Shown: positions 2,927 through 60,779 of the stretch, one piece after another
Numbering within the stretch: position 1 is the stretch's first letter
Layout of the letters: every line of letters begins with the position of its first letter
Source: Gemmatimonadota bacterium
Lineage (GTDB): Bacteria; Gemmatimonadota; Gemmatimonadetes; Gemmatimonadales; GWC2-71-9
Direction of reading: 5' to 3'
Assembly (NCBI GenBank): GCA_039590195.1
Contig: JBDHFY010000003.1
Span: forward strand, 4,241 to 68,240
Length of the DNA: 64,000 nucleotides
Notes under the pieces: generated by a model
The model's input: only the letters and a program-made list of their open reading frames with translations
What the model was told of the DNA's origin: nothing
Databases searched by the model: none
Made by a program: the position numbers and the translations under genes

Positions 2927-3198
2927 AAGCTCGCCTCGGCGGTGGGAGGGACGCAATACGGTGCCACGGCAAATGATGGTACCGCTGAGGCCCGGAAGCG
3001 TCACCAGTTTTCTGGGGCTAGTAGCGTTCTCACGCGGTAACGTTCTTGGCATGGGCGTGCGAGCCAGCCTGTTGAGTCCCGCGCTGAGAGGGCGGGCCCT
3101 TCGGCGCAAGCTTGAGCGACAGCCCGCCGAGCCGCGAGCTTAGTCGCGGTTGCAAAACCGCCGAGCGCGGGCTCTCAGCCCTGGACTCAACCCATCCC

Positions 3199-8854: not shown

Positions 8855-8870
8855 GTAGGCTCAGGAGCGA

Positions 8871-8898
8871 CCAGCTCCCAGCTCCCCGCTCCCCGCTC
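8871..8898. repeat. Heptamer tandem repeat (CCAGCTC x2, CCCGCTC x2)
   Basis: Four phase-consistent 7-mers between the convergent kinase (stop 8854) and the CPBP gene (stop 8908). Confidence 0.7.
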
Positions 8899-8907
8899 TG
8901 TCTTTTG

Positions 8908-22718: not shown

Positions 22719-22975
22719 TTGTGGTCTCCTCTCCCAACGGAGTTCGCCTTCGGCACCAACCCACCGCTGCAGTCCACTCGGTGGGCCCTGACGCATACCA
22801 GCATGGAGCCGAAGGACCCGGACGAATGGAGGGGGCTTCATCGGGATCCCAGTGCAGTTACAGAAATGAACCTTAGTGCTCATTAAGAGTATACTCATGA
22901 TGAGTGTAGGAGTTCCCGGCGGCCGGGCCGGTGAAGCTGGCTGTTTGGTGGGGGATGAGGGTGTTATTATCTGAT

Positions 22976-23049: not shown

Positions 23050-23412
23050 ATGGTCGCACGTATTCGCAGTGAGGACATCGAAAGCCATTTGCCGTTGAGG
23101 CCGGTCGAGTTCTTCGTGCTGGCGGTCTTGAAGGACGGCCCGCTGCACGGCTACGGCATTGTCCAGGAGGTGGGCCGGCGCACGACTGACCGGATCCGCA
23201 TCCGGCCGGGGAACCTGTACCGGGTGCTCGATCGCATGATGGAACGAGACCTCCTCGAGGTAGCGGAACGGCGGGTGGTCCACGACCTGGACGCCGAGCG
23301 TAGGACGTACTATCGGATCACACCGCTTGGGCGGCGGGTCGTTGCCGCCGAGGCGGAGATGCTTGGAGAGTTTGTAGCGGACGTCACCGGCAAGGCATTT
23401 CGACAGGTTTGA
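23050..23412 (+). CDS. PadR-family transcriptional regulator
   Basis: ORF 22993-23412 trimmed to MVARIRSEDIE... Motifs FFVLAVLKDGPLHGYGIVQEV...GNLYRVLDRMMERDLL...RRTYYRITPLG. Confidence 0.9.
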   Translation: MVARIRSEDIESHLPLRPVEFFVLAVLKDGPLHGYGIVQEVGRRTTDRIRIRPGNLYRVLDRMMERDLLEVAERRVVHDLDAERRTYYRITPLGRRVVAAEAEMLGEFVADVTGKAFRQV

Positions 23413-26165
23413 TGAATCGACCCACGCCTTGGAGTGAACGGGTTCTCCGGTTCCTCCTCGTCGTCTATCCTCCGCACTTCAGAGAGCGGCACCAGCGGGA
23501 GCTGGTGGAGCTCTATCGCGACGCGTACGACACGGGCGGTCCGCTTGGGCGGCTGCGGCTGTGTCTGAGAGTCGGATGGGACACCGTAGTCTGCGGCGTG
23601 CCGGCCAGATGGGACGCCCTCTGGAGCCGTCGTCGCCGCAGGGGATCTCGGCCTGTGGTCTTTCCACGGGCCGCCGTCCATCCCTGGCGTTCTCACAGAA
23701 GCGGTTTCGGGGAGATGCTGTGGCACGACAGCCGTTACGCTCTCCGGACGCTCCTGAAGCAGCCAGGGTATGCCCTTGTGGTGCTGCTCACGCTCGCCCT
23801 CGGCATCGGTGCGAACTCGGCGATCTTCAGCGTAGTCAACGGCGTGTTGCTGCGGCCGCTCCCGTATGATGGTGGAGAGCGGGTGGTGCGGCTCCAGCAG
23901 TCGGTGCGGCGGACAACGGTTGCAGAGATGGGATTCTCTGTGCCGGAGGTAGCCGACTACCGGGATGAGACATCGACGCTCGACGGCGTGGTGGAGTATC
24001 ACACTCTGTGGTTCACCCTCGTCAATGCGGGAGATCCCGAGAGGGTCCAGACCGGGGTCGTTTCCTGGAACTACTTTGATGTCCTGGGGGTCCGACCGCT
24101 GTACGGACGTGCGCTCGTCGAGGCAGACGATCATCCAGGGGCAGCGCCGGTTCTGGTGTTGAGCCACCACTATTGGAAACGGCGCTTTGGGGGCGATCCG
24201 GAGGTCGTGGGCAAGACGGTCAAACTCAATGGCATGCCCCACCTGATCGTCGGCGTTCTTCCCCCTATCCCGCGGTACCCCAATGCAGCCGATGACGTGT
24301 ACATGCCGGCGTCGGCTTGCCCGTTCCGCACGCCGGAGTGGCTCGATAACCGCGACATCAGGGCGCTGACGGTCTTCGGCCGCATCAAGGGGGGTGCCAC
24401 GATCGATGGCGCGCGTCGCGACATCGAGCGCGTCGCGATCCGCTTGCGTCACCGGCATCCCGATTCGTATCCCCCGGCCGGGGAACACACCATCGCGGCG
24501 ACTCCCCTCTATGAGGAATTGACCCAGGAGGCACGTCCCACGCTGGTCATGCTGTTGGCGACCGCTGGATTCGTGCTCCTGATTGTGTGCGCCAACGTGG
24601 CAAACCTCACCCTGGCCCGGCTCATGCGGCGTGGGCGCGAGATCACGATACGCTCGGCGCTCGGGGCGGGGCGACGGCGGCTGATGCAGCAGTTGTTGAC
24701 CGAGAGTTGTGTGCTTGCGCTGCTCGGCGGAGGGCTCGGCCTGTTGCTCGCCATTGCCGGCTTGGATCTGCTGGTGGACTTCGCAGGCCGCTTCACGGTG
24801 AGGACGGAGGAGATCGGTGTCGACGGAACAGTGGCTGCCTTCACGCTCGTGATATCGCTCGCCACGGGTGTAGCCGTCGGGTTAGTGCCGGCCCTGCCGC
24901 GACACCCGCTGTTACAAGAGGGGCTCAAGGAGGGGGGAGCGCGAGTCTCGGCCGGCGGGCGTGTCCATCGTATGCGCAGCGCGCTCATCGTGGCGCAACT
25001 TGCCGTGTCATTTATCCTCTTGTCCGGCGCCGGCCTGATGGTCCGCAGCCTGCTCAAGCTCCAGGATGTGGATCCTGGCTTCAATGCGGCCAATGTCCTC
25101 ACGATGCGGCTCGACCTCGATTTCTTCCGCTACACCCCCCAGGGTCGAGTCCGGATCGGCAGAGATTCGACGGGTCCGGGACCCATCGATTTCTACGCAA
25201 CGTTGTTGGATCGACTTCGTTGGCGCAGAGGCATCGAATCGTACGCGCTCGCTGGCGACGTCCCACTCCAGGGCGGGCTGCCCACGGTGGGGTTTTGGGT
25301 CGATCACTCGCTCTCCGGTGACGAAGTTGCCGAACCGGCGCAGTTGAATGTTGTCAGCGAAGATTATTTCCGCACGGTCGGTGTGAGCCTGCTTACGGGA
25401 CGCACTTTCAAGAAGAGTGATCGCCAAGGCACCCAACGGGTGGCGGTGGTCAACCGAGGTATGGCTGTGCGCCATTGGGGGTTGGACAAGGCAGTGGGAC
25501 AACGAATCTCCATGGACCGCGAGAACTGGATCACGGTCGTCGGCGTCGTCAATGACGTCAGGCAGGACGGCCTGGCCAGTACGGCTCCCGATCAGGTCTA
25601 TTTCCCGCTGCGGCAATCTTCCTGGGAAGGAGCTACCCTCTTTGTGCGGGCCGCCTGCGAGGCCACGGCGTTGACGGGAGATATTGTCAGCACCGTGCGC
25701 CAGGTGGACCCGCAGCAGCCCGTGGCGTTCGTTCGGACTCTCGCGCAGGTTCGCGACGATTCCCTAGCTTCTTCGCGGTTGTCCGCGGTGCTGCTCGGGA
25801 TGTTTGCCTCGCTGGCTCTGATCATATCGGCGGCGGGGATCGCCGGCGTGATAGGCTACGCGGTCACGCAGCGGACCCATGAGATCGGGATCCGGATCGC
25901 TCTTGGGGCGGGGCAGGGGCGGGTGATCACCATGGTGCTGCGGCAGGGGGCGATGCTCATCGCGATCGGGCTGGGGCTCGGCGCGCTGGGTTCGCTCGCG
26001 CTCACGCAGCTCATGGGCTCACTGCTCTTCGAGGTGAAGCCGACCGACCCGCTTACCTACGTTGCTGTCATGGCGACGCTTGCGGGCGTCGCCGCCGTCG
26101 CCGTTCTCCTCCCCGCCCGCCGCGCGATCTCCATCGATCCCGTGCGCGTGTTGTCCAGCGAGTAG
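23409..26165 (+). CDS. ADOP-type duplicated FtsX/MacB ABC transporter permease
   Basis: 918-aa ORF whose start overlaps the PadR stop by 4 bp. It has the same architecture as 3199-5874 (prefix domain, LWHDSRYALRTLLKQPGYALV..., C-terminal LLPARRAISIDPVRVLSSE). Confidence 0.9.
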   Translation: MMNRPTPWSERVLRFLLVVYPPHFRERHQRELVELYRDAYDTGGPLGRLRLCLRVGWDTVVCGVPARWDALWSRRRRRGSRPVVFPRAAVHPWRSHRSGFGEMLWHDSRYALRTLLKQPGYALVVLLTLALGIGANSAIFSVVNGVLLRPLPYDGGERVVRLQQSVRRTTVAEMGFSVPEVADYRDETSTLDGVVEYHTLWFTLVNAGDPERVQTGVVSWNYFDVLGVRPLYGRALVEADDHPGAAPVLVLSHHYWKRRFGGDPEVVGKTVKLNGMPHLIVGVLPPIPRYPNAADDVYMPASACPFRTPEWLDNRDIRALTVFGRIKGGATIDGARRDIERVAIRLRHRHPDSYPPAGEHTIAATPLYEELTQEARPTLVMLLATAGFVLLIVCANVANLTLARLMRRGREITIRSALGAGRRRLMQQLLTESCVLALLGGGLGLLLAIAGLDLLVDFAGRFTVRTEEIGVDGTVAAFTLVISLATGVAVGLVPALPRHPLLQEGLKEGGARVSAGGRVHRMRSALIVAQLAVSFILLSGAGLMVRSLLKLQDVDPGFNAANVLTMRLDLDFFRYTPQGRVRIGRDSTGPGPIDFYATLLDRLRWRRGIESYALAGDVPLQGGLPTVGFWVDHSLSGDEVAEPAQLNVVSEDYFRTVGVSLLTGRTFKKSDRQGTQRVAVVNRGMAVRHWGLDKAVGQRISMDRENWITVVGVVNDVRQDGLASTAPDQVYFPLRQSSWEGATLFVRAACEATALTGDIVSTVRQVDPQQPVAFVRTLAQVRDDSLASSRLSAVLLGMFASLALIISAAGIAGVIGYAVTQRTHEIGIRIALGAGQGRVITMVLRQGAMLIAIGLGLGALGSLALTQLMGSLLFEVKPTDPLTYVAVMATLAGVAAVAVLLPARRAISIDPVRVLSSE

Positions 26166-29147: not shown

Positions 29148-29175
29148 GCCGGCCGCTGGCAGCCGGCCGCCGGCA
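29148..29175 (+). repeat. Heptamer repeat GCCGGCC GCTGGCA GCCGGCC GCCGGCA (GCYGGCM family)
   Basis: Four phased 7-mers immediately 3' of the cheR-like stop (29195). The outer arms GCTGCCGGC...GCCGGCAGC can pair, and the array is followed by CCCTTTTC. About 23 nt are identical to the reverse complement of 32495-32517. Confidence 0.7.
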
Positions 29176-29194
29176 GCCCTTTTCACGGCCGGAC

Positions 29195-30050: not shown

Positions 30051-30245
30051 CCCCCCCACACCCCCACCCCTCCCGCTGCCCGCTGCCGGCTGCCGGCTGC
30101 CGGCTGCCAGCCGCCGTTTCCGTGGCAAACCACCTCTCACCTCTCACGTCTCACCTCTCACCACCTCTACACCCTACACCCTACACCCTATTCCCTAAGC
30201 CCTAAGCCCCAAGCCCCAAGCCCCAAGCCCCACGCCCCAATCCCT
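30051..30245. repeat. Mosaic array of ~25 phased heptamers (C-runs; GCTGCCG x6; CACCTCT x4-5; ACACCCT x3; AAGCCCY x6...)
   Basis: Read directly: gctgccc gctgccg gctgccg gctgccg gctgcca gccgccg tttccgt ggcaaac cacctct cacctct cacgtct cacctct caccacc (tct) acaccct acaccct acaccct attccct aagccct aagcccc aagcccc aagcccc aagcccc acgcccc aatccct. The array lies in the divergent region between the cheR-like gene (start 30010) and the lipoprotein gene (start 30403). Confidence 0.85.
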
Positions 30246-30847: not shown

Positions 30848-32482
30848 ATGCCCCTTCCCATGAAGGTCCTGCAACCCTCTACCCTGATAACCGTTGCCGG
30901 TCTGCTCACGGTGTTGCCGCGGCCGGTGTACGGCCAGGATATCGAGATGACGGCACACGTGATGGGTCAGCAGGTCCCGGCCGAGTACTACCAGATCATC
31001 CAACGGCAACCCGATTTCTTCGAGGTCAAGCGCGGCTGGATCGGCAAGCTCGAAAACGCACCAGTCACGGGCACGCTGCCCATGGTGATTGTGCAGGCCC
31101 TCTTCGGTGATTCGCCGGAACCTCGCTTCACTCGTGAAGAAATCCAGCAGGTGCTGTTCGACGGACCGGCGCCGTACGGGACGCTCACCGATTTTTACGA
31201 TGAGGTGTCGGGTGGACGGCTCACGGTGGAGGGGCAGGTGCTCCCCTGGGTGCGCACCGAGATCACGCTGGCCGCGACACAAGGTGGTGCGCGGATTGGG
31301 GATGGGACCCCCACTTACATGGAGCAGGCGCTGAGGGAGGCCGACAGCTTCACCGATTTCGGGCAGTTCGACAACGATGGGCCCGACGGTCTTCCGAACA
31401 GCGGTGATGACGATGGGCACGTTGACGCCCTGGCCTTTCAGTACATCGAGGAAGCGGCATCGTGTGGGGGTCCCGCTCCCTGGCCCCACCGGTCGCGCAT
31501 CTCCAATTGGACGGGAGATCCCTTCGCCACCGATGACCTGCGACCGAACGGCGAACCCGTTTTAGTCAATGACTACATCATGCAGAGCACGGTCACGTGC
31601 GAAACGCTGGAGCTCCTGAACGCGAGCGTTGTCGCCCACGAGATGGGACACATGCTGGGCCTCCCCGACCTGTACGACAACACGGAGGGTTCGCTGCCGG
31701 CGTTTCGCGCCTGGGTGGCCGGCTGCTGGTCGTTGATGGCTGGAGGCACGTGGGGTTGTGGTGACGGCAGCGCCAGGACGGTGACGAGGCGCCCGCCGCA
31801 CATGGGTCCGTGGGAGAAGAGCGAGCTGGGGTGGCTGTCCGAAGAGCAAGTGGTGGGGGAGGGGCTGAATCAGGAATTCGTGCTCGAGCCGGTGATCACG
31901 TCGGGGAAGGTTCTTCGGGTACCGCTCAGCGACAGTGAATACTTCCTTGTCGAGTTTCGCGAACGCGCGGGGTTCGATCAGGATCTTCCGCTCCCCGGCG
32001 TGTTGGTCTACCACGTCGACGTCAACCGACCGCGACGGCCGTGCCGCTCATGTGAGAAGATCTATCATGTGCACGTCGTCGAGGCCGACGGGGACGAGGC
32101 GCTCCTCCGCAGCTCATTCGACGGCGGTGATCGGGGCGTGCCGGGAGATGTCTTCGGGGCATCAGGCCCGCAGCGATTGTCCAACGTGACGACGCCCTCC
32201 ACCCGGCTCCACTCGGGCGCGGCGTCGCCGGTGACGTTCTACTCGATTTCACTCGAGGATGGTTTGGCGAGAATTGTGTTGTCGACCACCACCCTTTCTC
32301 TCGAGCAGCTCCTCAGCCCCTTCACCGACGGAGGAGGTCTGCTGCTCTCGGTGCAGGAAGCCGAGTGCCTCGATTCACTCGGTAATCACAACGGCCATTA
32401 CGACGTGGGTGACCTGCGCCGGTATCTCAAGGAGCACCCGTCGGTGGTGGTGGCGGCTGGGCAAGTCGGGGGGCAACGGTGA
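30848..32482 (+). CDS. M6-family (immune inhibitor A-like) zinc metalloprotease
   Basis: ORF 30821-32482 trimmed to MPLPMKVLQ... Signal peptide. M6 N-terminal pattern (GTLPMVIVQALFGDSP...TDFYDEVSGGRLTVEGQVLPWV). Zinc site VVAHEMGHMLGLPDLYD. Confidence 0.8.
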   Translation: MPLPMKVLQPSTLITVAGLLTVLPRPVYGQDIEMTAHVMGQQVPAEYYQIIQRQPDFFEVKRGWIGKLENAPVTGTLPMVIVQALFGDSPEPRFTREEIQQVLFDGPAPYGTLTDFYDEVSGGRLTVEGQVLPWVRTEITLAATQGGARIGDGTPTYMEQALREADSFTDFGQFDNDGPDGLPNSGDDDGHVDALAFQYIEEAASCGGPAPWPHRSRISNWTGDPFATDDLRPNGEPVLVNDYIMQSTVTCETLELLNASVVAHEMGHMLGLPDLYDNTEGSLPAFRAWVAGCWSLMAGGTWGCGDGSARTVTRRPPHMGPWEKSELGWLSEEQVVGEGLNQEFVLEPVITSGKVLRVPLSDSEYFLVEFRERAGFDQDLPLPGVLVYHVDVNRPRRPCRSCEKIYHVHVVEADGDEALLRSSFDGGDRGVPGDVFGASGPQRLSNVTTPSTRLHSGAASPVTFYSISLEDGLARIVLSTTTLSLEQLLSPFTDGGGLLLSVQEAECLDSLGNHNGHYDVGDLRRYLKEHPSVVVAAGQVGGQR

Positions 32483-32517
32483 AGTCAGCTACCAGCGGCC
32501 GGCTGCCAGCGGCCGGC
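32483..32517 (-). repeat. Heptamer repeat, minus-strand reading GCCGGCC GCTGGCA GCCGGCC GCTGGTA GCTGACT
   Basis: Five phased 7-mers directly after the M6 protease stop. It is an inverted copy of the 29148-29175 element. Confidence 0.7.
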
Positions 32518-33651: not shown

Positions 33652-34770
33652 TCAATAAAGGTGCATCCAGCTTCGCTCGCCCAAGGGGATGGCGAAAGCG
33701 GTTCCCTGGAGCGACTGCTGCACGGCACAGCTCGAGTAGTGAAACTGCGCGTTCCCGCCGATGTCATTTTCGTCATCGAATCCGTTCGCGGCGATCACGG
33801 CACCGTTGAATTTTTGTCCGGTGCCCGTCGTCTTGAACCGTCCGCGTACAATTACGACCCCAAAGAATTCGAAGTTTCCCGCAACGCTGAGGTCGCCATC
33901 GACGAGAAGCAGACCCTGACCCTGCCGGCCATTGATCCTCGCATCTCCCGAGATGTAGATGGTGGGGAAGTACTTGCCGCATGCAGAAGAGGGGTCTTTT
34001 CCGTCACCCCAGTTCTGGGGATCAGCGAGGTTGCATTGGGTGCCGACGAAGCTGGGCTGGATCTGAGTGTAGGTGCCCGGACCCAGTGCCGTCGTGGCAA
34101 TCGCTGCCAATGCGTCGAAGTTGTCGTCGCCGAAGGTTGTCAGGGCGGCCTCGTCGATCGTCGCATCGCCGAGAACTGGGGGAACACCATCTAGCTCGTA
34201 AGAGTTGCCCGAGGTGCTGATGTTGGTAGCATCGTCGACCAGGATCCCTGGGAGCGAGGTCCCAAGCGGAGGACAGTCGGACCACCCGGGCGGCAGGTGG
34301 TCGTGGCCGTCGATGTCGGAGTTTCCGCGGACCCTCACATCTCCCTTTGTCTTGAACGCCGCATCGATGTCGATCTCGAAGGGACGGAGGCGAGCCAAGA
34401 GCCCTACATGTTGGTGTGTCGAGGAGTCCGCGCTGAAGCCCTGCGCGTCGACCAGGTACAGCATGGTGTTCATGCGGCGCAGGGTGCGCCGGTACCAGCC
34501 GGTGCCATCGTCCATCCACCCCTCGTCGGTGAGCGTCGAGCCGGCGGCGATGCTGTTGTACCGGAAGGCATCCCAGTCCGCCAAGAGATATTCAGCGGCT
34601 CCGTCCGCCGTGTTAAAAGCGTGCTGTGCCTTGACGGTGCTGCGTCCCAACCGCTGCTCCTGCATCCCGACGAAGAAAGCGCCGGAAATCAACCCGCCGA
34701 TCAGCAGAAGGGCGAACACGGCGGTCACCAGCGCTACACCGCGTTCATCCGTTCGGTTTGCCATCATCAT
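33652..34770 (-). CDS. PilX_N-type pilus assembly protein, paralog 2
   Basis: ORF 33652-34812 trimmed to MMMANRTDERGVALVTAVFALLLIGGLISGAFFVGMQEQRLG, the PilX N-terminal domain pattern (ERG.AL + hydrophobic helix, no G/F cleavage site). Clearly paralogous along its whole length to 35691-36833. Confidence 0.7.
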   Translation of the reverse strand: MMMANRTDERGVALVTAVFALLLIGGLISGAFFVGMQEQRLGRSTVKAQHAFNTADGAAEYLLADWDAFRYNSIAAGSTLTDEGWMDDGTGWYRRTLRRMNTMLYLVDAQGFSADSSTHQHVGLLARLRPFEIDIDAAFKTKGDVRVRGNSDIDGHDHLPPGWSDCPPLGTSLPGILVDDATNISTSGNSYELDGVPPVLGDATIDEAALTTFGDDNFDALAAIATTALGPGTYTQIQPSFVGTQCNLADPQNWGDGKDPSSACGKYFPTIYISGDARINGRQGQGLLLVDGDLSVAGNFEFFGVVIVRGRFKTTGTGQKFNGAVIAANGFDDENDIGGNAQFHYSSCAVQQSLQGTAFAIPLGERSWMHLY

Positions 34771-34852
34771 GGACTCAGCTCGCTCGAGGGCTCTAGCTCG
34801 CCCGCGCCCCAAGTCCGTGATCGAGCAACCACTTGGGGCAGTGAAGCTCCGA

Positions 34853-34887
34853 GCTGGCAGCTAACAGCTAATAGCTGTTAGCTCCTC
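34853..34887. repeat. Heptamer repeat GCTGGCA GCTAACA GCTAATA GCTGTTA GCTCCTC forming a palindrome (possible terminator/attenuator)
   Basis: The centre TAACAGCTA-T-TAGCTGTTA is a perfect 9-bp inverted repeat. It is located between the REC-HTH regulator stop (34890) and the PilX-like paralog 2 start. Confidence 0.65.
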
Positions 34888-34889
34888 CC

Positions 34890-35489
34890 TCATGCGTTGA
34901 GATGATAACTCTTGATCTTCTTGATTAACGTCGTCCGCGCAATCCCGAGTTCGCGCGACGCGTGCGTGCGATTGCCCCGGTGATGTCGCAGGACCTCTTC
35001 GATGTGCTCGCGCTCGAAGTCATCGAGCGTACGGGGAAGGTGATCGGCCTCTGCTGCGACACCGGCGAGATACTCACCGCTTCTCCGCTGCTCGAGCTCG
35101 GCCTCCAGCGTTGCCAACTGATTCTTCAGTAGCTCTCGTTCCTCGGCTTGACGAATGGTGAGCGCCAGCTGGTCCGGGCGGAATGGTTTGGCGAGGTAAT
35201 CGTACGCACCCCACTCCATCGCCTGAATCGCGGCGTCCTCATCCGAGTATGCGCTCATCATGATCACCAGCGCTGCGCCGCCCGCTGACTTGTAGCGACG
35301 CAGGAAGTCAGGACCCGTCAGGTCCGGCATCTGGACGTCGCAGAGGATGAGGTCGAAAGGCTCGTGTGTCGCCAGGTTGAGCGCCTGGACGGGGGAGCCT
35401 TCTGCCTGCACGTCGTGTCCATCGAACTTGAGCAGACGGACGAGAGAATCTCTGAGACCAGGGTCGTCGTCAATGATGAGGAGTTTCAT
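34890..35489 (-). CDS. Response regulator, REC + Fis-type HTH, lacking the sigma-54 AAA+ module
   Basis: 199-aa ORF. By eye, its REC domain is about two-thirds identical to the REC of the NtrC-type regulator at 38627-39982 (MKLLIIDDDPGLRD...PFDLILCDVQMP...GGAALVIMMSAY...GAYDYLAKPFRPD). The coiled linker (LATLEAELEQ) joins directly to the HTH (NRTHASRELGIARTTLIKKIK). It has no Walker A and no GAFTGA. Confidence 0.85.
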   Translation of the reverse strand: MKLLIIDDDPGLRDSLVRLLKFDGHDVQAEGSPVQALNLATHEPFDLILCDVQMPDLTGPDFLRRYKSAGGAALVIMMSAYSDEDAAIQAMEWGAYDYLAKPFRPDQLALTIRQAEERELLKNQLATLEAELEQRRSGEYLAGVAAEADHLPRTLDDFEREHIEEVLRHHRGNRTHASRELGIARTTLIKKIKSYHLNA

Positions 35490-35690: not shown

Positions 35691-36833
35691 TCAGTATAGG
35701 TTCACCCAACTTCGCTCGCCGAAGGGAATCGCAAGTGCGGTTCCCTGGAGCGAACGCTGAATGGCGCAGCTCGAGTAGTAGAGTTTCGCGTTTCCAGCGA
35801 CGTCGTTGAGTCCGTTGCCGTTATTGGCGGCGATCACCGCGCCGTGGAACTTCTGGCCGGTCCCCTCCGTCGAGAACCGTCCGCGCACGATGATCACGCC
35901 GAAGTACTCGAAATTGCCCTTTACCAAGAGGTCGCCGTCCACGAGGAGGAGGCCCTGGCCCTGCCAGTTGCGGACCTCTGCGTCCCCCTTGATATGCGTG
36001 ATAGGGTAGTACGTCCCGCAAGGCGATAACGGGTTCTGCCCGTCGCCCCAGTTCTTGGGATCCGCGAGATTGCATTCGCCGCCGACCAGGCTTGGCTGAA
36101 GCTGAGCGTACAATCCAGGAGCCAGCACCTTCGTCGCCTCGGCGGCCAGGGCATCAAAGTCGGTGTCCCCAAACGTGGTGAGCTCGGCTAGGTCGATCTC
36201 CGAATCTTCGTCGATGCGCGGGTTGCCGTCGATGATGTGTGCCCCACCTTCTTCTGTGACGTTCGCCATATCGTCCACCAGCAGTCCGGGAGCCCCAGCA
36301 TCGAGCGAGGGGCAATCGAGCCACCCGGGCGGCGTGCGATCGTGGCCATTTATTTCGGACTGTCCACGAGCCTTCACGTTGCCGCGCGTCTTGAAGGCGG
36401 CGTTGGCGTTGACTTCCACCAGATTGAGCCGGGCCAGGAGGCCGACGTGTTGCTGTGTCGAGCTGTCCGCACTGAAGCCCTCCACCTCGACCAAGAACTG
36501 CATCGTGTTCAGCCTGCGTAGCGTGCTGCGGTACCAGCCCGTGCCGTCGTCCATCCACCCATTCTGGGTGAGTGTCGAGCCGATCTGGAGGTTGTTGTAC
36601 CGAAACGCATCCCAGTCCGCCACGAGATATTCAGCGGCTCCGTCGGCTGTGTTAAAGGCCTGCTGCGCCTTGAGCGTGGTGCGGCCCACCCGCTGCTCCT
36701 GCATTCCGACGAAGAAAGCGCCGGAAATCAACCCGCCGATCAGCAGAAGGGCGAACACGGCACCAGCTAGGGCCATACCGCGTTCGTTTCTTCGGTTCGC
36801 CATCATCGGACTCCTTCGCGGGCTGTTCGTCAC
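35691..36833 (-). CDS. PilX_N-type pilus assembly protein, paralog 1
   Basis: 380-aa ORF whose ATG overlaps the PilW-like stop (ATGA). An internal MMANRRNERGMALAGAVFALLLIGGLISGAFFVGMQEQRVG is an alternative start (36806). The C-terminal region is conserved with paralog 2 (GQGLLLVDGDL.V.GNFE.FGV.IVRGRF.T.GTGQKF.GAVIAAN). Confidence 0.7.
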   Translation of the reverse strand: MTNSPRRSPMMANRRNERGMALAGAVFALLLIGGLISGAFFVGMQEQRVGRTTLKAQQAFNTADGAAEYLVADWDAFRYNNLQIGSTLTQNGWMDDGTGWYRSTLRRLNTMQFLVEVEGFSADSSTQQHVGLLARLNLVEVNANAAFKTRGNVKARGQSEINGHDRTPPGWLDCPSLDAGAPGLLVDDMANVTEEGGAHIIDGNPRIDEDSEIDLAELTTFGDTDFDALAAEATKVLAPGLYAQLQPSLVGGECNLADPKNWGDGQNPLSPCGTYYPITHIKGDAEVRNWQGQGLLLVDGDLLVKGNFEYFGVIIVRGRFSTEGTGQKFHGAVIAANNGNGLNDVAGNAKLYYSSCAIQRSLQGTALAIPFGERSWVNLY

Positions 36834-45931: not shown

Positions 45932-45973
45932 TGGTGCAGCTAACAGCTAATGGCTAACAGCTAGCAGCTGCAT
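45932..45973 (+). repeat. Heptamer repeat TGGTGCA GCTAACA GCTAATG GCTAACA GCTAGCA GCTGCAT
   Basis: Six phased 7-mers filling the gap between the class-A-like gene stop (45973) and the upstream gene start (45897). Confidence 0.7.
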
Positions 45974-46983
45974 CACGGATTAAAGAGGAAATAATCGTGG
46001 ATTGCTCTTGCGATATGGGCTATGGCCAGCTCGCGTTCGGACCCTTCGAGATCTGACTCCTTGACGAGCACCACCGTCACGACATGTCCGGCTTCGTTGG
46101 GAAGCGTGACGATGCCCACGTCGTTGGTGGTACCACCGATCGTTCCGGTCTTGTGAAAGACTTCCGTGTCCGGCGGCAACAGGCCCTTGATCCGCGCACG
46201 TCCGGTCGTGCTTCGTCGCATGATGTCCAGCAGTAGGTCGGAGCTCTGCTCACTGAGAATCTCCTTGCGCCAGATGCGCGCTAGGAGATCGGCCATGGCG
46301 TGCGGCGTGGCCGTATCCCGGGTATCTCGCTCGAACGCCTCGCCCGCTCGTTCCCTCACCTCATCCGGAATGCTGTCGGCGAGCTCGGAGAAATCGTGGG
46401 GCGTCACGTCACCGCTGGGTGGCAGGCCCTCCACGCCGATCCAGTCGCCGATCAAATGGACCGTTGGCCGATTCACGTCGATACCATCGATGCCGAGGGC
46501 TCGCATCCTGGCCGTCACGGCCTCCCCTCCACCGGCGGCGGTGAGAACCATGTCCGTTGCCGAGTTGTCACTGATGAGAAGCATGAGTTCAGTGAGATTT
46601 CGCAGCGAGAGGATGACTCCGGGGTCGTCGAAAAGTCGAGAGAGTGTTCCGCTTCCTGGATGCAGGTCGACCTGCCGGACCTCTATCATGGAGTCTAGGC
46701 TGATCTCGCCCGCGTCAACGCGGGTGAAGAGTTGCACGGCTATGGGCACCTTGTAGGTACTGGCCATGCCGAATCGCTCCCCGCCGTTGTGAGACACACG
46801 TCGCCCCGTCTCGAGGTGGATGGCCGCCACCCCGACCGGTCCTCCCGCCAGCTCGGCAAGCCGGGCGATTTCCGCTTCCAAATGTTGCAGGTGCGGGTCG
46901 GTCTGTGCATCGAGCGGTGTGGAGGGCAGGGCCACCGCAATGCAGATGTACGTAGCAGCGAGCAACTTACTCCGTACGGTCAT
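45973..46983 (-). CDS. Class A beta-lactamase-family serine hydrolase
   Basis: 336-aa ORF with a signal peptide. All three class A motifs are in order: STYK (SxxK), SDN, KTG (FHKTGTIGG). Confidence 0.8.
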   Translation of the reverse strand: MTVRSKLLAATYICIAVALPSTPLDAQTDPHLQHLEAEIARLAELAGGPVGVAAIHLETGRRVSHNGGERFGMASTYKVPIAVQLFTRVDAGEISLDSMIEVRQVDLHPGSGTLSRLFDDPGVILSLRNLTELMLLISDNSATDMVLTAAGGGEAVTARMRALGIDGIDVNRPTVHLIGDWIGVEGLPPSGDVTPHDFSELADSIPDEVRERAGEAFERDTRDTATPHAMADLLARIWRKEILSEQSSDLLLDIMRRSTTGRARIKGLLPPDTEVFHKTGTIGGTTNDVGIVTLPNEAGHVVTVVLVKESDLEGSERELAIAHIARAIHDYFLFNP

Positions 46984-47014: not shown

Positions 47015-47035
47015 GCTGGCAGCCGGCAGCTGGCC
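47015..47035 (+). repeat. Heptamer repeat GCTGGCA GCCGGCA GCTGGCC
   Basis: Three phased 7-mers about 30 nt upstream of the class-A-like gene start (46983). Same family as 29148, 34853 and 53424. Confidence 0.6.
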
Positions 47036-47185: not shown

Positions 47186-47213
47186 CTAAGCCCCAACCCC
47201 TAAGCCCTGAGCT
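47186..47213. repeat. Heptamer repeat TAAGCCC CAACCCC TAAGCCC TGAGCTC
   Basis: Four phased 7-mers of the C-rich class overlapping the 3' end and stop of the racemase-family gene. A GGGCACC...GGTGCCC hairpin lies just upstream (47155-47180). Confidence 0.55.
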
Positions 47214-51810: not shown

Positions 51811-51918
51811 GGAGGGGCAGGAGGGGCAGGAGGGGCAGGAGGGGTAGGAGGGGCAGGAGGGGCAGAAGGGGCAGGAGAGGCAGGAGAGGCAGGAGACGAA
51901 AAGGGGGCAGAAGAGGCA
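51811..51918 (+). repeat. 9-bp tandem repeat GGAGGGGCA (about 12 increasingly degenerate copies); G-quadruplex motif
   Basis: ggaggggca x3, ggaggggta, ggaggggca x2, gaaggggca, ggagaggca x2, ggagacgaa, aagggggca, gaagaggca. It lies in the divergent region between the transporter (start 51644, minus) and the dipeptidase (start 52042, plus). There are seven GGGG runs with 5-nt spacers on the plus strand. Confidence 0.85.
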
Positions 51919-53373: not shown

Positions 53374-53423
53374 CCAAGGAGTACAAACTGATGGAAGCAG
53401 TCTACCGAACCACTCTGGTGCGA

Positions 53424-53479
53424 GCCGGCCGCCGGCAGCCGGTACCTAACAGCTGACGGCTAACAGCTAACAGCTACAG
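53424..53479 (+). repeat. Heptamer repeat, 8 phased units: GCCGGCC GCCGGCA GCCGGTA CCTAACA GCTGACG GCTAACA GCTAACA GCTACAG
   Basis: It occupies the gap between the convergent dipeptidase (stop 53373) and asparaginase. The asparaginase TAG stop lies inside the last unit. Confidence 0.8.
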
Positions 53480-54433
53480 GTCGCGCGCGATTACGGCTCG
53501 TACGTCGTCATCCAACGGATTTCCGGTGATGCGGCCCCCGGGAACGCGGGAGGCGATGGCCAGTGCTGTGCTCCGTCGGGAGGCTTCGCGTAGCGCCCTT
53601 CGAGCGCCGGCGCTCATCCGCCCGCCGGCAAAGGTCGTCACGACAAGCCCACTGATTCTCTTTTCCATCCAGTAGTCGATCGCGGATCCGTCGAAGCCGG
53701 CATAGTCCGCGACGATCTCCACCCGGGGCAGCTCGGTCAACTGAATGACGTCAAACGCTGAGTGCGCCGTGTGGCGCCGCAACGGCGCCCGGTAGAACAC
53801 GACGGTGTCTGGATCGGCGAAGCCCAGGACCCCCAACTCTGGAGTGCGGAACGTCTGCACTCGGCGGTTGTCAGTCTTCCACACGTCGCGGGCGCTGCTG
53901 ATCTCCTCATTGAGGACGACGAGAACGCCCTTCCCGCCTGCTTCCGGCGATACGACTACGCGCACCGCGTTCAGAAGGTTGGCCGGACCATCGGCGGAGA
54001 TCTCCGTTGCCGAGCGCATGGAACCCACCATGACGACCGGCCGTGAGTCCCGGATCGTGAGGTGGAGAAAGTAAGCTGTCTCCTCCAGGGTGTCGGTGCC
54101 GTGCGTGACAACGACACCCGCGAGATCCGGCTGCTCGCCGAACAACGCGTTGATCCGCTTGGCGAGGCGGAGCCAATGTGGGGGCGTCATCTGCGATGAC
54201 CCGATGCGGCTGAACTCCTCCACAGAGACGTCGGCGTGGTCCAGAAGCTCGGGAACCGCCTGCACGAGCGCGGGCCCCTCCATGATTGGGGCCCCTGCGC
54301 GACTGGCAATCGTTCCGCCGGTCGTGACGATCACGACCTTGGGCATGGGTCGGGACTGCCCGCTGACGCCGGAAGGTCCCCATGCCATGCCGAAGCCCGC
54401 ACCGACCACCGTTACAAGAGTCCGGAACCTCAC
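53474..54433 (-). CDS. Type II (periplasmic) L-asparaginase family protein
   Basis: 319-aa ORF with a signal peptide. Active-site motifs VTTGGTIAS and VVTHGTDTLEETAYFL. Confidence 0.85.
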   Translation of the reverse strand: MRFRTLVTVVGAGFGMAWGPSGVSGQSRPMPKVVIVTTGGTIASRAGAPIMEGPALVQAVPELLDHADVSVEEFSRIGSSQMTPPHWLRLAKRINALFGEQPDLAGVVVTHGTDTLEETAYFLHLTIRDSRPVVMVGSMRSATEISADGPANLLNAVRVVVSPEAGGKGVLVVLNEEISSARDVWKTDNRRVQTFRTPELGVLGFADPDTVVFYRAPLRRHTAHSAFDVIQLTELPRVEIVADYAGFDGSAIDYWMEKRISGLVVTTFAGGRMSAGARRALREASRRSTALAIASRVPGGRITGNPLDDDVRAVIARDL

Positions 54434-54685: not shown

Positions 54686-57052
54686 ATGCTTGAACGGGGA
54701 AGGCGGGTTGTCGGTGCCGCGCTGGTTGTCATTGCCGGTGCCTTCGCCTGTGGACGACAGGCGGCGGATGTTCCTCCGCGGCAGGACTATGCGGAAGCCG
54801 CGGAGCGTCTCGCAGCTTTTGTTGAGCACGAGATGGCGGACAAATCACTGCCGGCTATCTCCATCGTCCTCGTGGACGATCAGGAGATCGTCTGGGCTCG
54901 CGGTTTCGGTTATGCTGATCCGGAAGACAGCGTGGAGGCCACAGCTGCGACGGTGTACCGGGTGGGATCGGTCTCGAAGCTCTTCACCGACCTTGGGATC
55001 ATGCAACTCGTGGAGCGAGGAGAGATCGATCTCGACGCGCCCGTGACGGATTACCTGCCGGATTTTCGTCCCGAGAGCCGGTTCGAGGAAGGCGTGACCC
55101 TGCGGCAACTCATGTCGCACCGCTCCGGGCTCGTGCGAGAACCGCCGGTTGGCCACTACTTCGATGACACCGACGCCTCTCTCGAAGCCACGGTCGCTAG
55201 CCTCAACCAAACAGCGGCCGTGTACGAGCCGGAGTCGCGCACGAAGTACTCGAATGCAGGAATTGCCTCGGTGGGATATGCGCTCGAACGTACGAAGGGA
55301 GAACCGTTCGCAGACTATCTGAAGCACGCAGTCCTCGACCCATTGGGCATGGATCGAAGCGCATTTGATCCTGATGCCTCCATCGCGCGCAGGCTGGCGC
55401 GCGCATATATGTGGACGTACGACGGCCGCACCTTTGAGGCTCCCGGATTTCAGTTGGGGATGGCCCCCGCCGGAAGCATGTACGCTCCCGTGACCGATCT
55501 GGGTCTGTTCATGAGCGCGCTCTTCGCGGACGGTGTGGGCGCGCGTGGTCAGGTAGTGTCGTCTGAAACTCTCGCGGAGATGCTCACACCGCAGTTCGCG
55601 CCGAGTGATGCCACCACCGGGTACGGCATCGGATTCCGCCTGTCGGAGTTCGATGGCCACCGTGCGATCGGCCATGGTGGAGCGATCTATGGATTTGCGA
55701 CGGACCTCGCGGCGCTGCCCGACGAGAAGCTCGGAGCGGCTGCAGTGACCACGATGGACGGCGCGAACGCCGTCGTTGAGCGGATCACGAGGTACGCCCT
55801 GAGGCTGATGCTGGCCGTGCGCGAAGGGCGCCCCCTTCCTGAAGCGGAAGTGACGGAAGACGTGCCTCTGGATGTGTTCGACCGGATCGCCGGCCGGTAT
55901 GGCCGCGGCGACCGGCAGATCGACATCACAACCCGCGGAGGGGAGGCACGTGCGTGGGTGCGCCGGCCAGGCCTACGCCTCCGGCTCATGGCCCGCGGCG
56001 ACACCCTGATCGTGGACGATCGGCTCGCGTATGGGACGCGGATCATTCCGGTCGAAGGCGGAATTGTCGTCGACGGCGACAGGCTCGAGCGAGTTACGGT
56101 GCCCAAGCCGCCGCGGGCTCCGACGGAATGGCTGGAACTCTTGGGCGAGTACGGTTGGGATCACAACACCCTCTACATCCTGGAAAGGGATCGCCAGCTT
56201 CACGCGTTGATCGAGTGGTTCTTCCTGTACCCGCTCGAGGAGATCTCCCCGGACGTGTTTGCGTTCCCCTCATGGGGCCTGTACGACGGTGAGCGGTTGC
56301 TCTTCTCCCGAGATGCAGATGGACGGGCAACTGGCGTCGAGGCTGCGAGTGTGGTGTTCGCGCGCAGGGAGGTCGGCACGGAGGCAGGGGTCACGTTCAC
56401 CATCGAGCCCGTTCGCCCGGTGGACGAGCTTCGTGGCGAGGCGCTGGCGGCGAGCCCGCCGGAAGAGGTGGGCGAGTTTCGAGACCCAGACCTGGCCGAA
56501 CTCAAGACTCTCGAACCGACCATCGAGTACGACATCCGTTATGCCAGCACCAACAACTTCATGCAATCGGTGTTCTACGACCAGCCAAAGGCATTCATGC
56601 AGCGGTCAGCTGCGGAGGCGTTGGTCGGGGCACACGGCAAGTTGCGGGAACGAGGGTACGGTCTGCTGATTCATGACGCGTACCGACCGTGGTATGTGAC
56701 GAAGATGTTCTGGGATGCGACACCCGAGGACATGAAGATTTTCGTCGCTGACCCAGCAAGCGGGTCGCGTCACAACCGCGGTGCGGCGGTGGACCTCACG
56801 CTGTACGACGTGCGCACGGGCCGACCCATTGAGATGGTCGGGGGATACGATGAATTCTCGGATCGCTCGTTTCCCGATTACGTTGGCGGCACATCGCTCG
56901 AGCGCTGGCACCGAGATCTCTTGCGGGATGCGATGGAAGCGGAAGGATTTCAGGTGTACGAGTTCGAGTGGTGGCATTTCGACTACGGTCATTGGTCACG
57001 ATATCCGATTATGAATGTGACATTTGATGAGATAGGGAGAGGGGAGAGGTGA
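54686..57052 (+). CDS. Fusion lipoprotein: beta-lactamase-fold serine hydrolase + middle domain + VanX/DdpX-type D-Ala-D-Ala dipeptidase (M15D)
   Basis: ORF 54560-57052 trimmed to MLERGRRVVGAALVVIAGAFAC (AAAGGAG RBS, lipobox). The N-terminal domain has YRVGSVSKLFT (SxxK) and SHRSGL. The C-terminal ~176 aa (about 56522-57049) carry the VanX zinc motifs SRHNRGAAVD (SxHxxGxAxD) and EWWHF. Confidence 0.8.
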   Translation: MLERGRRVVGAALVVIAGAFACGRQAADVPPRQDYAEAAERLAAFVEHEMADKSLPAISIVLVDDQEIVWARGFGYADPEDSVEATAATVYRVGSVSKLFTDLGIMQLVERGEIDLDAPVTDYLPDFRPESRFEEGVTLRQLMSHRSGLVREPPVGHYFDDTDASLEATVASLNQTAAVYEPESRTKYSNAGIASVGYALERTKGEPFADYLKHAVLDPLGMDRSAFDPDASIARRLARAYMWTYDGRTFEAPGFQLGMAPAGSMYAPVTDLGLFMSALFADGVGARGQVVSSETLAEMLTPQFAPSDATTGYGIGFRLSEFDGHRAIGHGGAIYGFATDLAALPDEKLGAAAVTTMDGANAVVERITRYALRLMLAVREGRPLPEAEVTEDVPLDVFDRIAGRYGRGDRQIDITTRGGEARAWVRRPGLRLRLMARGDTLIVDDRLAYGTRIIPVEGGIVVDGDRLERVTVPKPPRAPTEWLELLGEYGWDHNTLYILERDRQLHALIEWFFLYPLEEISPDVFAFPSWGLYDGERLLFSRDADGRATGVEAASVVFARREVGTEAGVTFTIEPVRPVDELRGEALAASPPEEVGEFRDPDLAELKTLEPTIEYDIRYASTNNFMQSVFYDQPKAFMQRSAAEALVGAHGKLRERGYGLLIHDAYRPWYVTKMFWDATPEDMKIFVADPASGSRHNRGAAVDLTLYDVRTGRPIEMVGGYDEFSDRSFPDYVGGTSLERWHRDLLRDAMEAEGFQVYEFEWWHFDYGHWSRYPIMNVTFDEIGRGER

Positions 57053-57061
57053 CTAGGGAGC

Positions 57062-57092
57062 GGGGAGTGGGGAGCGGGTACCTCCACTCCCC
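57062..57092. terminator. Hairpin GGGGAGTGG-N13-CCACTCCCC between convergent genes
   Basis: Perfect 9-bp stem within a GGGAGCG/GGGAGTG heptamer context, 10 nt after the fusion-gene stop. Confidence 0.45.
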
Positions 57093-60704: not shown

Positions 60705-60707
60705 GGT

Positions 60708-60777
60708 GAGAAGGGCGAAGGGGAATCCGTAGGGGCGCAGCATGCTGCACCCCTACCTAATTCCCCTTCTCCCTCTC
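60708..60777. terminator. Long imperfect inverted repeat (about 34-nt arms) between convergent genes; bidirectional terminator candidate
   Basis: gagaagggcgaaggggaatccgtaggggcgcagc-at-gctgcacccctacctaattccccttctccctctc. The central GTAGGGG(C)GCAGC/GCTGC(A)CCCCTAC stem is nearly perfect. The arms are themselves built from G-rich/C-rich heptamers. Confidence 0.6.
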
Positions 60778-60779
60778 CC

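Follow-up and report, generated by a model that had tools for sequence, protein, structure and literature searches.

Tandem heptanucleotide arrays in the intergenic DNA of an uncultured Gemmatimonadota bacterium

What are the heptamer arrays that recur between genes in a 64-kb stretch of Gemmatimonadota DNA (the window, analysed at its full length of 64,000 nt), and why do they lie where they do? The bacterium is an uncultured, soil-type organism. The focal array, beside an asparaginase gene, is one of several that a sequence-only reading had grouped as a REP/STRR-like family, with terminators, mRNA stabilisers or six-frame stop cassettes as possible roles.

Period-7 arrays and their location

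A strict self-match scan of the window found five arrays with period 7 and five with period 14, all intergenic, and zero or one at each of the remaining periods from 4 to 15. A relaxed scan of its 8,218 nt of intergenic DNA found seven period-7 arrays against 0.03 expected from 100 dinucleotide-preserving shuffles, none of which held more than one; other periods gave zero or one array in the same DNA. Within the window, the suspected enrichment over shuffled intergenic DNA is therefore borne out. The sequence GCYRRCAGCYRRCA, allowing at most one mismatch, has 22 matches where 1.6 are expected, a number reached in none of 100 shuffles, and TRF also calls period-7 arrays at the array sites.

Altogether the window has about 14 arrays of period 7. 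They are spread over 11 of 41 spacers and make up 7% (~560 nt) of its intergenic DNA. Every site named in the sequence-only reading carries one; the CACCTCT array at 30131–30162 (A4) had been overlooked. The unit types in the window are GCYGGCA, GCTAACA, CCCCAAG, CACCTCT, CACCCTA, CCAGCTC and GGGAGNG, and the arrays are as follows.

A1, 8871–8898: CCAGCTC/CCCGCTC x4, the minus strand being G-rich (GGGGAGC); in the convergent spacer 8855–8907 between the stops of a Ser/Thr kinase gene (8854) and an Rce1-like gene (8908); identical in strain contig L082; no special fold.
A2, 29148–29178: GCCGGCC GCTGGCA GCCGGCC GCCGGCA, self-complementary (inverted repeat I6); between the CheR stop (29195), 16 nt upstream, and a flavin reductase start (28934), 213 nt downstream.
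A3, 30072–30116, minus-strand reading: GCTGGCA (GCCGGCA)x3 GCGGGCA GCGGG; in a 609-nt divergent spacer upstream of CheR; the copy in contig L085 is identical.
A4, 30131–30162, plus strand: CACCTCT x4.6; in a divergent spacer, as are A5-A6; identical in L084 and L085.
A5-A6, 30167–30245, plus strand: a single array in one register, its unit drifting from CCTACAC through CCTATTC, CCTAAGC, CCCAAGC and CCCACGC to CCCAATC; on the minus strand this gives (CTTGGGG)n, a candidate G-quadruplex-type motif, and no structure is seen on the plus strand; L084 and L085 carry identical copies.
A7, 32483–32517: AGCTACC AGCGGCC GGCTGCC AGCGGCC GGC; begins 0–5 nt past the TGA of an M6-peptidase gene (32480–32482), its end 36 nt short of the next start; the L084 and L085 copies are identical.
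A8, 34853–34887: GCTGGCA GCTAACA GCTAATA GCTGTTA GCTCCTC, with a hairpin and stops in six frames; 2 nt after a response-regulator stop (34890–34892), with the next start 82 nt further on.
A9, 45932–45973: GCTAACA GCTAATG GCTAACA GCTAGCA, with stops in six frames; abuts the TGA of a class-A beta-lactamase-like gene (45973–45975).
A10, 47015–47035: three units, GCTGGCA GCCGGCA GCTGGCC; 31 nt upstream of a beta-lactamase-like start codon; no special fold.
A11, 47186–47213, minus strand: cagggct TAGGGGT TGGGGCT TAG on the gene's strand; overlaps the last three codons and stop codon of an enolase-superfamily gene, whose TAG (47200–47202) opens a repeat unit.
A12 (focal), 53423–53479, minus strand: eight units in one register, on the asparaginase strand TAGCTGT TAGCTGT TAGCCGT CAGCTGT TAGGTAC CGGCTGC CGGCGGC CGGCTCG; stops in six frames; in a convergent spacer with an M19 dipeptidase gene (stop 53373).
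A13, 57035–57092, plus strand: GGGAGAG GGGAGAG GTGACTA GGGAGCG GGGAGTG GGGAGCG, then inverted CCTCCACTCCCC; a partial hairpin whose 3' half is the inverted complement of its first half; the TGA of a beta-lactamase/M15 gene (57050–57052) lies within a diverged unit; identical in L083.
A14, 60708–60777: a 70-nt palindrome with GAAGGGN-like arms (inverted repeat I1), filling the convergent spacer 60705–60779; single-copy in the window; one SNP in L001.

Some of these descriptions revise the sequence-only reading. The palindrome at 34862–34880 in A8, previously given a central T, reads TAACAGCTA-A-TAGCTGTTA, with A as its central base; A13, previously started at 57053, begins upstream of the TGA, within the last codons of its gene; and A14, listed as a plain heptamer array, is a palindrome whose arms are only heptamer-like. 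That the arrays lie outside coding sequence holds in general, with the qualification that A11 and A13 overlap the last codons of genes: all window arrays are intergenic or overlap a gene by at most its last few codons. Gene boundaries in the window were checked against independent gene calls made on four near-identical contigs. Scans of the window gave no Rfam match and no tRNA.

The excess of period 7 extends to related DNA. In 120 metagenomic loci there are 205 period-7 arrays and no more than 10 at any other period, and 143 of 167 arrays are intergenic although 83% of this DNA is coding. Gene models for these loci came from a codon-usage model trained on the window, and checked against independent gene calls in the window only; it was used in place of a third-position G+C gene finder, which matched 30 of 53 window stop codons. 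In 80 GTDB loci, 16 arrays have period 7, against 0–3 at each period divisible by neither 3 nor 7.

Register with stop codons, and stops in six frames

The arrays tend to begin where the upstream gene stops, in register with its stop codon, both in the window and in the 120 metagenomic loci. In nine of the 11 array-bearing window spacers an array is no more than 16 nt from a stop codon, and five of six arrays in co-directional spacers adjoin a stop, A10 being the only one nearer a start; A7 and A9 abut stop codons yet are out of register with them. Among metagenomic arrays chosen by search pattern, 16 are at most 4 nt from a stop where 6.3 are expected (p = 2e-4); for arrays unselected by the pattern the figures are 13 and 3.6 (p = 3e-5). 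The heptamer containing the stop codon is in array register in about 25 of 49 arrays (about 11 of 20 unselected ones), where one in seven is expected (p = 1e-9 and 2e-5, respectively). In-register anchoring is also found in named Acidobacteriota genomes.

A12, the focal array, repeats AGC TAC TAG, the Ser-Tyr-stop end of the asparaginase, and the full-length allele in contig L083 has cagctac TAGCTAC additionally ahead of it. Relative to three other assemblies the window contig has lost 94 bp, the junction being at 53476..53477. The deletion takes out the last 29 asparaginase codons, the native TAG and the first array unit, and joins codon 319 to a TAG within A12. The asparaginase TAG does lie inside the array, at 53474–53476, as the sequence-only reading had it, though solely owing to this deletion; and because the array supplies a stop codon, the window asparaginase looks like a complete reading frame. 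Five of five other homologues read (64–71% identity) keep a C-terminus of the form ...KARxLLMLALT...IFD(S/T/R)Y, and judging by this comparison the truncated protein, without the conserved segment, is probably impaired. Arrays can conceal truncated alleles in this way, and a practical use for annotation is that they mark gene 3' ends. They can also break short-read assemblies: contig L084 terminates inside A3.

Three or more GCTAACA units put TAA in each plus-strand frame, and their complement TGTTAGC puts TAG in each minus-strand frame, 7 being coprime to 3. The arithmetic, pointed out in the sequence-only reading, is true, but applies to A8, A9 and A12 only (three of 14 arrays); GCCGGCA-type arrays have no stop in any frame. 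Six-frame stops occur in none of the 6,246 (35 nt) and 5,514 (56 nt) non-array intergenic windows. The arrays might be selected as stop cassettes, catching read-through or frameshifted ribosomes or capping frames after 3' deletions. This would suit the three arrays named, the immediate capping of the 94-bp asparaginase deletion by an array TAG, and metagenomic arrays in L137, L180 and L213, which keep TAG or TGA in many units. It is nevertheless improbable. Related metagenomic arrays mostly keep the stop in the first unit alone (TAG, then CAG or TGG), which is the reverse of what back-up stops predict and makes selection for multiple stops unlikely; most window arrays have no stop-bearing units; it is hard to see what a stop on the non-transcribed strand would do; and the asparaginase capped by the array has lost its conserved end. 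We read the six-frame stops as a by-product of arrays starting at a stop codon.

Relation to described heptanucleotide repeats

Rather than a new type of element, the arrays are a further case of a repeat class known from several bacteria, cyanobacteria and Xanthomonas among them. Short tandem heptamers of the STRR type were reportedly described by Mazel and colleagues in 1990, in heterocystous cyanobacteria; their units are CCCCAGT, TTGGTCA and CAACAGT. The STRR-like label of the sequence-only reading is apt, the arrays being tandem heptanucleotides, dispersed and intergenic, and as in STRR several unit types occur per genome and some arrays are compound. The units found here (GCYGGCA, GCTAACA, CCCCAAG, CACCTCT, GGGAGNG) do not match the canonical STRR units, however, and the organism is not a heterocystous cyanobacterium and has a G+C content of 62%.

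More broadly, among the long simple-sequence repeats of most bacterial genomes those with heptanucleotide units are the most abundant, which was attributed to polymerase slippage, in the accounts given of Mrazek (2007) by PMC4679880 and PMC4692102. As summarized there, the long simple-sequence repeats of Mrazek, Guo and Shah (2007), with units of 5–11 nt, are heptamer-dominated, longer than chance, intergenic, sporadic and explained by slippage. The window arrays likewise are tandem repeats above chance expectation, predominantly of period 7 and excluded from coding sequence. What differs is the lineage, the proteins here being closest to those of Gemmatimonadota and Vicinamibacteria. Among the matches listed, the closest named relatives of the asparaginase are from Gemmatimonadota/Gemmatimonadales at ~70% identity; a genome scan with it listed none closer than 70% and no shared gene order, and no relative at 72–99% identity appeared among 5.8 billion proteins. 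The closest named relative of the dipeptidase is from Vicinamibacteria (69%). Its closest relatives overall (81% and 73%) have another gene order and lack heptamer arrays.

Two further described systems share some features with the arrays. Rehm et al. (2015) reported G-quadruplex-forming heptamers, GGGAATC in Xanthomonas and GGGGAYT in Nostoc (PMC4692102). Like some arrays here, these are G-rich, form inverted pairs between convergent genes, are scarce within genes, and change in length and sequence between close relatives. The similarity is confined to what had been called the C-rich class (A1, A5-A6, A11, A13, A14), since GCYGGCA and GCTAACA arrays have no G-tracts. MacGregor (2015) described TAACTGA direct repeats in Beggiatoaceae, cyanobacteria and Bacteroidetes, for the most part sited a few nt ahead of start codons and with a suggested role in translation (PMC4679880). 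Those repeats too are intergenic and occur in unrelated phyla; their unit bears a stop, so that forward arrays stop three frames and overlap is possible only with the very end of a gene. That system, however, has a single start-proximal unit, whereas the arrays here have many units and mostly come directly after stops.

The sequence-only reading knew of no such family in this kind of genome. For this lineage that stands, but an excess of heptamers, their closeness to stop codons and their stops in every frame are published for other bacteria (PMC4692102, PMC4679880). Neither anchoring in register with the stop nor drift of the units along an array is found in the heptamer accounts of these two papers. 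The present data extend an unexplained heptamer excess to a lineage with proteins closest to Gemmatimonadota and Acidobacteriota, and add a testable detail: arrays open at the stop codon and in its register, and their units decay with distance from it. If true genome-wide, this pattern would constrain models for the origin of heptamer repeats, without overturning current views.

Origin and possible roles

The reading we favour, at a probability of about 0.65, is that these are STRR-type heptanucleotide long simple-sequence repeats, arising by duplication and slippage in place and tolerated in non-coding DNA. Units of 7 nt would be tandemly duplicated where they stand and multiplied by replication slippage, and would persist only where a 7-nt change is harmless, that is, in non-coding DNA. 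The most upstream duplication that leaves the protein unaltered would be one containing the stop codon, which could explain why the first unit is a stop codon plus 4 nt. Selection would hold that unit, while later ones would be free to drift towards G+C (TAG to CAG or TGG), producing within-array gradients and apparent unit "families". Growth would halt where constraint resumes, for instance at a ribosome-binding site, at a promoter or where a facing gene has its stop codon. On this account, six-frame stops would follow from TAG-bearing units without defining the class; hairpins would arise from palindromic GCCGGC/AGCT units, or from the meeting of two inverted arrays in a convergent spacer; and G-rich arrays would yield G-quadruplex-type runs.

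In this history, slippage, the direction of seeding and near-neutrality are inferred, and the period-7 excess, intergenic location, in-register abutment on stops, unit gradients and a two-unit strain difference are observed. Stepwise change of unit without loss of register is seen in A5-A6, A12 and the metagenomic L147, L169, L186 and L008, and GCCGGC-type units grade into GCTAACA-type units along one array with the register unchanged. The strain difference concerns a (GGAGTAG)n array just outside the window, with five units in L258 and L001 and seven in L259. Together, the gradients and the exact two-unit difference point to slippage in place. Diversity is high, with 47 distinct units among 76 arrays on related metagenomic contigs, so neither a sequence-specific factor nor a mobile element is needed. 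Unit number is unchanged in nine array regions (A1, A3-A8, A12-A14) across one or two further strains at 99.5–99.9% identity, which suggests that slippage is slow for short imperfect arrays. The GCTAACA unit recurs at three window sites and also in viral contigs that are unrelated, which would not be expected if seeding were purely local.

A functional role at the RNA level was considered for the same arrays. By ViennaRNA, in a mode that excludes quadruplexes, five of 12 array regions form much stronger folds than their shuffles and seven fold no better, the z scores being -3.8 for A2 (either strand), -5.4 / -4.5 for A8, -2.4 / -3.3 for A9 and -8.1 / -8.7 for A14; the plus-strand fold of A4-A6 has only -1.5 kcal/mol over 124 nt. 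Runs compatible with putative quadruplexes (at least four of at least three G, with short loops between them) occur on the A6 minus strand, (CTTGGGG)x5, and in A13, GGGAGCGGGGAGTGGGGAGCGGG. For arrays with an assignable upstream gene, the strand of that gene has more G than C in 28 and fewer in 12 (p = 0.017). The opposite composition would be needed for Rho-loading (rut) sites as a general account of the C-rich arrays, and A4-A6 moreover sit in a divergent spacer; that idea was rejected.

The arrays could then be 3'-end elements, either terminators without a U-tract or REP-like hairpins or G-quadruplexes that protect mRNA. The nine spacers in which an array lies within 16 nt of a stop speak for this, as do the strong folds, the G-rich gene strand, a SNP in L001 that improves pairing in A14, and the inverted pairs in convergent spacers (A13, A14, L162, and L258 at 6747–6814), which Xanthomonas has likewise (PMC4692102). 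The seven unremarkable folds tell against it, as does the fact that some arrays precede genes (A3-A6, A10, the GGAGTAG array) and their absence from the closest relatives. Nor did a scan for hairpin-plus-T-run terminators report any array: canonical terminator-like sites numbered 11 and 12 in two regions against 11.5 and 11.0 expected, which is chance level. The terminator or mRNA-stabiliser role raised in the sequence-only reading is therefore possible for the well-folding subset, with none fitting the hairpin-plus-T-run form, and as an account of the arrays as a whole we consider it doubtful, if the strongest of the alternatives. The G bias and the strong hairpins of A2, A8 and A14 could reflect some selection for an RNA-level role. 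A less likely reading, for this and many other soil bacteria, is that an undescribed process, linked to translation ends or to the ribosome-free beginning of the 3' UTR, repeatedly duplicates the stop heptamer, the arrays then being kept as frame caps and 3' structures; the in-register anchoring would be its footprint.

REP elements are conserved imperfect palindromes of 20–40 nt tied to a dedicated transposase. Those of proteobacteria, with BIMEs, resemble the arrays in being intergenic, often after genes or between convergent genes, and in some forming stable hairpins. The arrays are also dispersed, some are palindromic, and some units are common to several sites, so that a mobile or transposase-dependent family might be suspected. 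They are 7-nt direct repeats, however, without a conserved core of that length; their units are diverse and grade within a single register; neither a Y1 nor any other transposase is present among the window proteins (64 kb of genome); and the Rfam scan gave no match. A14 was rejected as a member of a REP-like family, being the only long palindrome and single-copy in the window. The REP-like part of the earlier label is not supported, and we give a mobile family almost no credence.

The arrays might also be phase-variable contingency loci, with copy number switching the expression of a neighbouring gene. The GGAGTAG array, with its five or seven units, is 35 nt upstream of a start codon, and a 9-mer array upstream of the dipeptidase gene varies in unit number between strains. 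All nine comparable array regions inside the window are nevertheless unchanged across strains, and most arrays follow stop codons, where length should leave expression unaffected, so phase variation seems very improbable. The genes beside the arrays are ordinary metabolic and regulatory ones, which again does not favour contingency loci. The window also carries PadR genes paired with MacB/FtsX-type permease genes.

Heptamer arrays of the window

The window (62% G+C) contains some 14 tandem arrays of period 7, distributed over 11 of its 41 intergenic spacers and totalling ~560 nt, or 7% of its non-coding DNA. Numbered by position, they are:

A1, 8871-8898
A2, 29148-29178
A3, 30072-30116
A4, 30131-30162
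A5-A6, 30167-30245
A7, 32483-32517
A8, 34853-34887
A9, 45932-45973
A10, 47015-47035
A11, 47186-47213
A12 (focal array), 53423-53479
A13, 57035-57092
A14, 60708-60777

A gene model built on codon usage gives 53 genes at 87% coding density, with gene ends concordant with independent calls on near-identical contigs; a tRNA scan and an Rfam search of the 64 kb returned no tRNA genes and no Rfam matches. The heptamer arrays described in the sequence-only reading are confirmed, a period-7 array being present at every site it listed, and the corrections are minor: A4 had been overlooked; A13 had been started at 57053, while its true start is within the last codons of a gene; the palindrome at 34862-34880 is centered on A, not T; and A14, listed as a plain array, is a palindrome of 70 nt.

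A strict self-match scan found five arrays at period 7, five at period 14, and none or one at each remaining period in the range 4-15, all of them intergenic. A relaxed scan of 8,218 intergenic bases found seven period-7 arrays; in 100 dinucleotide-preserving shuffles of intergenic DNA, a comparison the sequence-only reading had called for, the mean was 0.03 and the maximum one. For its motif (two GCYRRCA units, at most one mismatch), there are 22 occurrences where 1.6 would be expected.

In nine of the 11 array-bearing spacers, the distance from an array to a stop codon is at most 16 nt. Of the six arrays in co-directional spacers, five adjoin the stop of the upstream gene and not the start of the next one, at stop/start distances of 16/213, 0/36, 2/82, 0/at least 35, and stop-overlapping/216 nt. 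Three arrays, A11, A12, and A13, incorporate the stop codon into a repeat unit, in the register of the array. The metagenomic contig L084 ends within A3, at its match to window position 30077; heptamer arrays of this kind appear to break short-read assemblies.

Unit drift, folding, and length variation

Units shift gradually within single arrays while keeping register. A5-A6 runs CCTACAC, CCTATTC, CCTAAGC, CCCAAGC, CCCACGC, CCCAATC; A12 grades from TAGCTGT units into CGGCTGC and CGGCGGC by way of TAGGTAC. Such stepwise change in one register makes the GCTAACA and GCCGGCA types opposite ends of one gradient. Their grouping in the sequence-only reading is supported to this extent, but they are drift products in place and not copies of one element; REP-like mobility is not supported. 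Its six-frame stops are arithmetically correct, but they hold only for A8, A9, and A12; GCCGGCA-type arrays have stops in no frame, and a selected role as stop cassettes is unlikely.

In the folding comparison it had also proposed, hairpins of A2, A8, A9, and A14 are much more stable than those of shuffles (z -3.3 to -8.7), and A13 forms a partial hairpin; A1, A3, A4-A6 (plus strand), A7, A10, A11, and A12 fold no better than shuffles. The hairpin-forming subset could possibly have a role at mRNA 3' ends, although no array fits a hairpin-plus-T-run terminator model, and such sites are at chance level in the scanned regions. The complement of A6, (CTTGGGG)n, is by its sequence a textbook G-quadruplex motif.

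An 80.8-kb contig present in NCBI and JGI includes the window, and contigs of 99.5-99.9% identity come from two MAG assemblies (GCA_039587735.1, GCA_039589555.1) and three JGI metagenomes (3300041077, 3300041079, 3300041086). In every near-identical contig the unit numbers of A1, A3-A8, and A12-A14 are constant, one SNP in A14 being the sole difference in these arrays. This argues against phase variation, which is not supported. Whole-unit changes do occur elsewhere. A (GGAGTAG)n array ~860 nt past the window end (L258 4855-4891; L259 3504-3554), which precedes the start codon of a TPR-protein gene by 35 nt, has five units in two assemblies and seven in a third; no other heptamer array was seen to differ in length among strains. 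A 9-mer tandem array (GGAGGGGCA, 9.4 copies, 51811-51895), which lies ~147 nt ahead of the M19 dipeptidase gene (start at 52042), has one unit more in the near-identical L083 and only ~2.5 units at the matching place in L256 (81% identity), and is thus a variable-number repeat expanded in this lineage. Together these suggest slippage-prone sequences, but no hypervariable switches.

Some strain differences lie outside the arrays. Similarity between L082 (6786-7465) and the window (2521-3200) ends just past the stop codon of an 891-residue permease gene, making the segment with a Uma2-family gene (2378-2926) strain-specific; L082 also differs by a 24-nt in-frame indel at ~9232, in an Rce1-like gene (8908-9789, minus strand). 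In L085, the gene at 33652-34770 (372 residues) is called as two genes owing to a 13-nt deletion (34228-34240), a frameshift variant within the population. That gene and its neighbor (35691-36776), both of unknown function, are paralogues, as judged from ~390-nt segments (34387-34776 and 36426-36813) that are 83% identical.

The asparaginase gene end

In three other assemblies of the same species the asparaginase has 348 residues and ends in ...KARVLLMLALTRTQEVREIQRMFDSY; this C-terminal motif and the final Tyr are found in five of five other homologues (64-71% identity). The full-length allele ends cagctac TAGCTAC TAGCTGT TAGCTGT ..., so that A12 repeats the gene's own last two codons plus stop, and can be taken as the clearest evidence for the seeding of an array from a gene's end. 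Relative to these three assemblies, the window gene (53474-54433, minus strand) has a 94-bp deletion (junction 53476|53477, without microhomology), with which the last 29 codons (PAHKARVLLMLALTRTQEVREIQRMFDSY, conserved), the native stop, and the first unit of the array are lost, and codon 319 is fused to a TAG of the array. The asparaginase TAG noticed inside the array is thereby borne out and accounted for. Either the deletion is genuine, a minority variant, or it is an artifact of assembly; in the former case the window allele is truncated and probably impaired.

Other loci, origin, and host lineage

The wider sample consists of 120 loci from one metagenome scan for (GCYGGCA)x3 (median G+C 66%). 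Period-7 arrays number 205 in them, whereas no other period exceeds 10, and many contigs have three to seven arrays each, with differing and drifting units (47 unit types in 76 arrays). By a gene model trained on the window, 143 of 167 arrays fall between genes, at a coding density of 83%. Compared with uniform placement in the spacer, arrays within 4 nt of a stop codon are in excess both among those selected by the search pattern (16 vs. 6.3 expected) and among those not selected by it (13 vs. 3.6). A heptamer starting with the stop codon is in array register in ~25 of 49 cases (~11 of 20 for unselected arrays; 1/7 expected). On the strand of the upstream gene, 28 arrays are G-rich and 12 C-rich. 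Examples at stops are:

TAGTCGC CAGTCGC CAGTCGC
TGAGCCG TGAGCTA TGAGCTA
TAGCCGG (four copies), then CAGCCGG

Decay is visible in a named Vicinamibacterales genome: TAGTTCC TAGTCCC TGATTCC TAGCTCC TATCTCC TGTCTCC TGCCTCC.

The window arrays belong to the STRR type of heptanucleotide simple-sequence repeats, not previously described from this lineage. The sequence-only reading knew of no such family; its main points all have precedents, including work of Mrazek et al. (as summarized in PMC4679880), G-rich heptamers in Xanthomonas and Nostoc (PMC4692102), and TAACTGA arrays, whose stops in all three frames confine overlap to the very end of a gene (PMC4679880). Two points go beyond these accounts: the in-register start at a stop codon with decay away from it, and a natural case of an array supplying the stop codon after a deletion. 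Most likely, stop codons would nucleate the arrays, which would form in place by duplication and slippage, within limits set by selection; the unit sequence would then account for six-frame stops, hairpins, and quadruplex motifs.

Over 4-21 kb, heptamer arrays are absent from the Gemmatimonadota loci and from the nearest dipeptidase relatives (81 and 73% identity); a Burkholderiales locus and several from Acidobacteriota do contain them. Their abundance thus varies patchily between lineages, as the literature has it for such repeats. Viral DNA has such arrays too: among IMG/VR contigs, 50 (35-70% G+C) carry GCTAACA, GCCAACA, or GCCAGCA arrays of 4-15 units. The Burkholderiales MAG locus (L025, 11.4 kb), from an unrelated phylum, has five separate GGGGTCA/GGGTCAT arrays, all intergenic by the window-trained model; in L258 (6747-6814), the spacer between two convergent stop codons consists of a long C-run followed by (GGGAGGN)n, a further inverted heptamer structure rich in G/C.

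Among the matches listed, the closest named relatives of the asparaginase are Gemmatimonadota (~70% identity); those of the dipeptidase are Vicinamibacteria (69%). A cyanobacterial host was rejected on these protein relatives, with which the PadR-permease pairs agree, pairing of PadR with MacB/FtsX-type permeases being typical of Acidobacteriota and Gemmatimonadota. Two of the three PadR genes are directly coupled to very long permease genes of this type, and a fourth pair immediately precedes the window (L260):

194-571, PadR regulator gene
5871-6215, PadR regulator gene, with permease gene 3199-5874 (891 residues)
23050-23412, PadR regulator gene, with permease gene 23409-26165 (918 residues)

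AT-rich palindromes at 605-640 (TATATCCGCTAGTGGATATATC) and 22879-22904 (CTCATTAAGAGTATACTCATGATGAG), in spacers upstream of PadR genes, are plausible as putative operator sites. The permease stop codon at 3199 is closely followed by a large 3' stem-loop without heptamer structure (3071-3191), whose inverted arms of 34 nt are separated by 53 nt.
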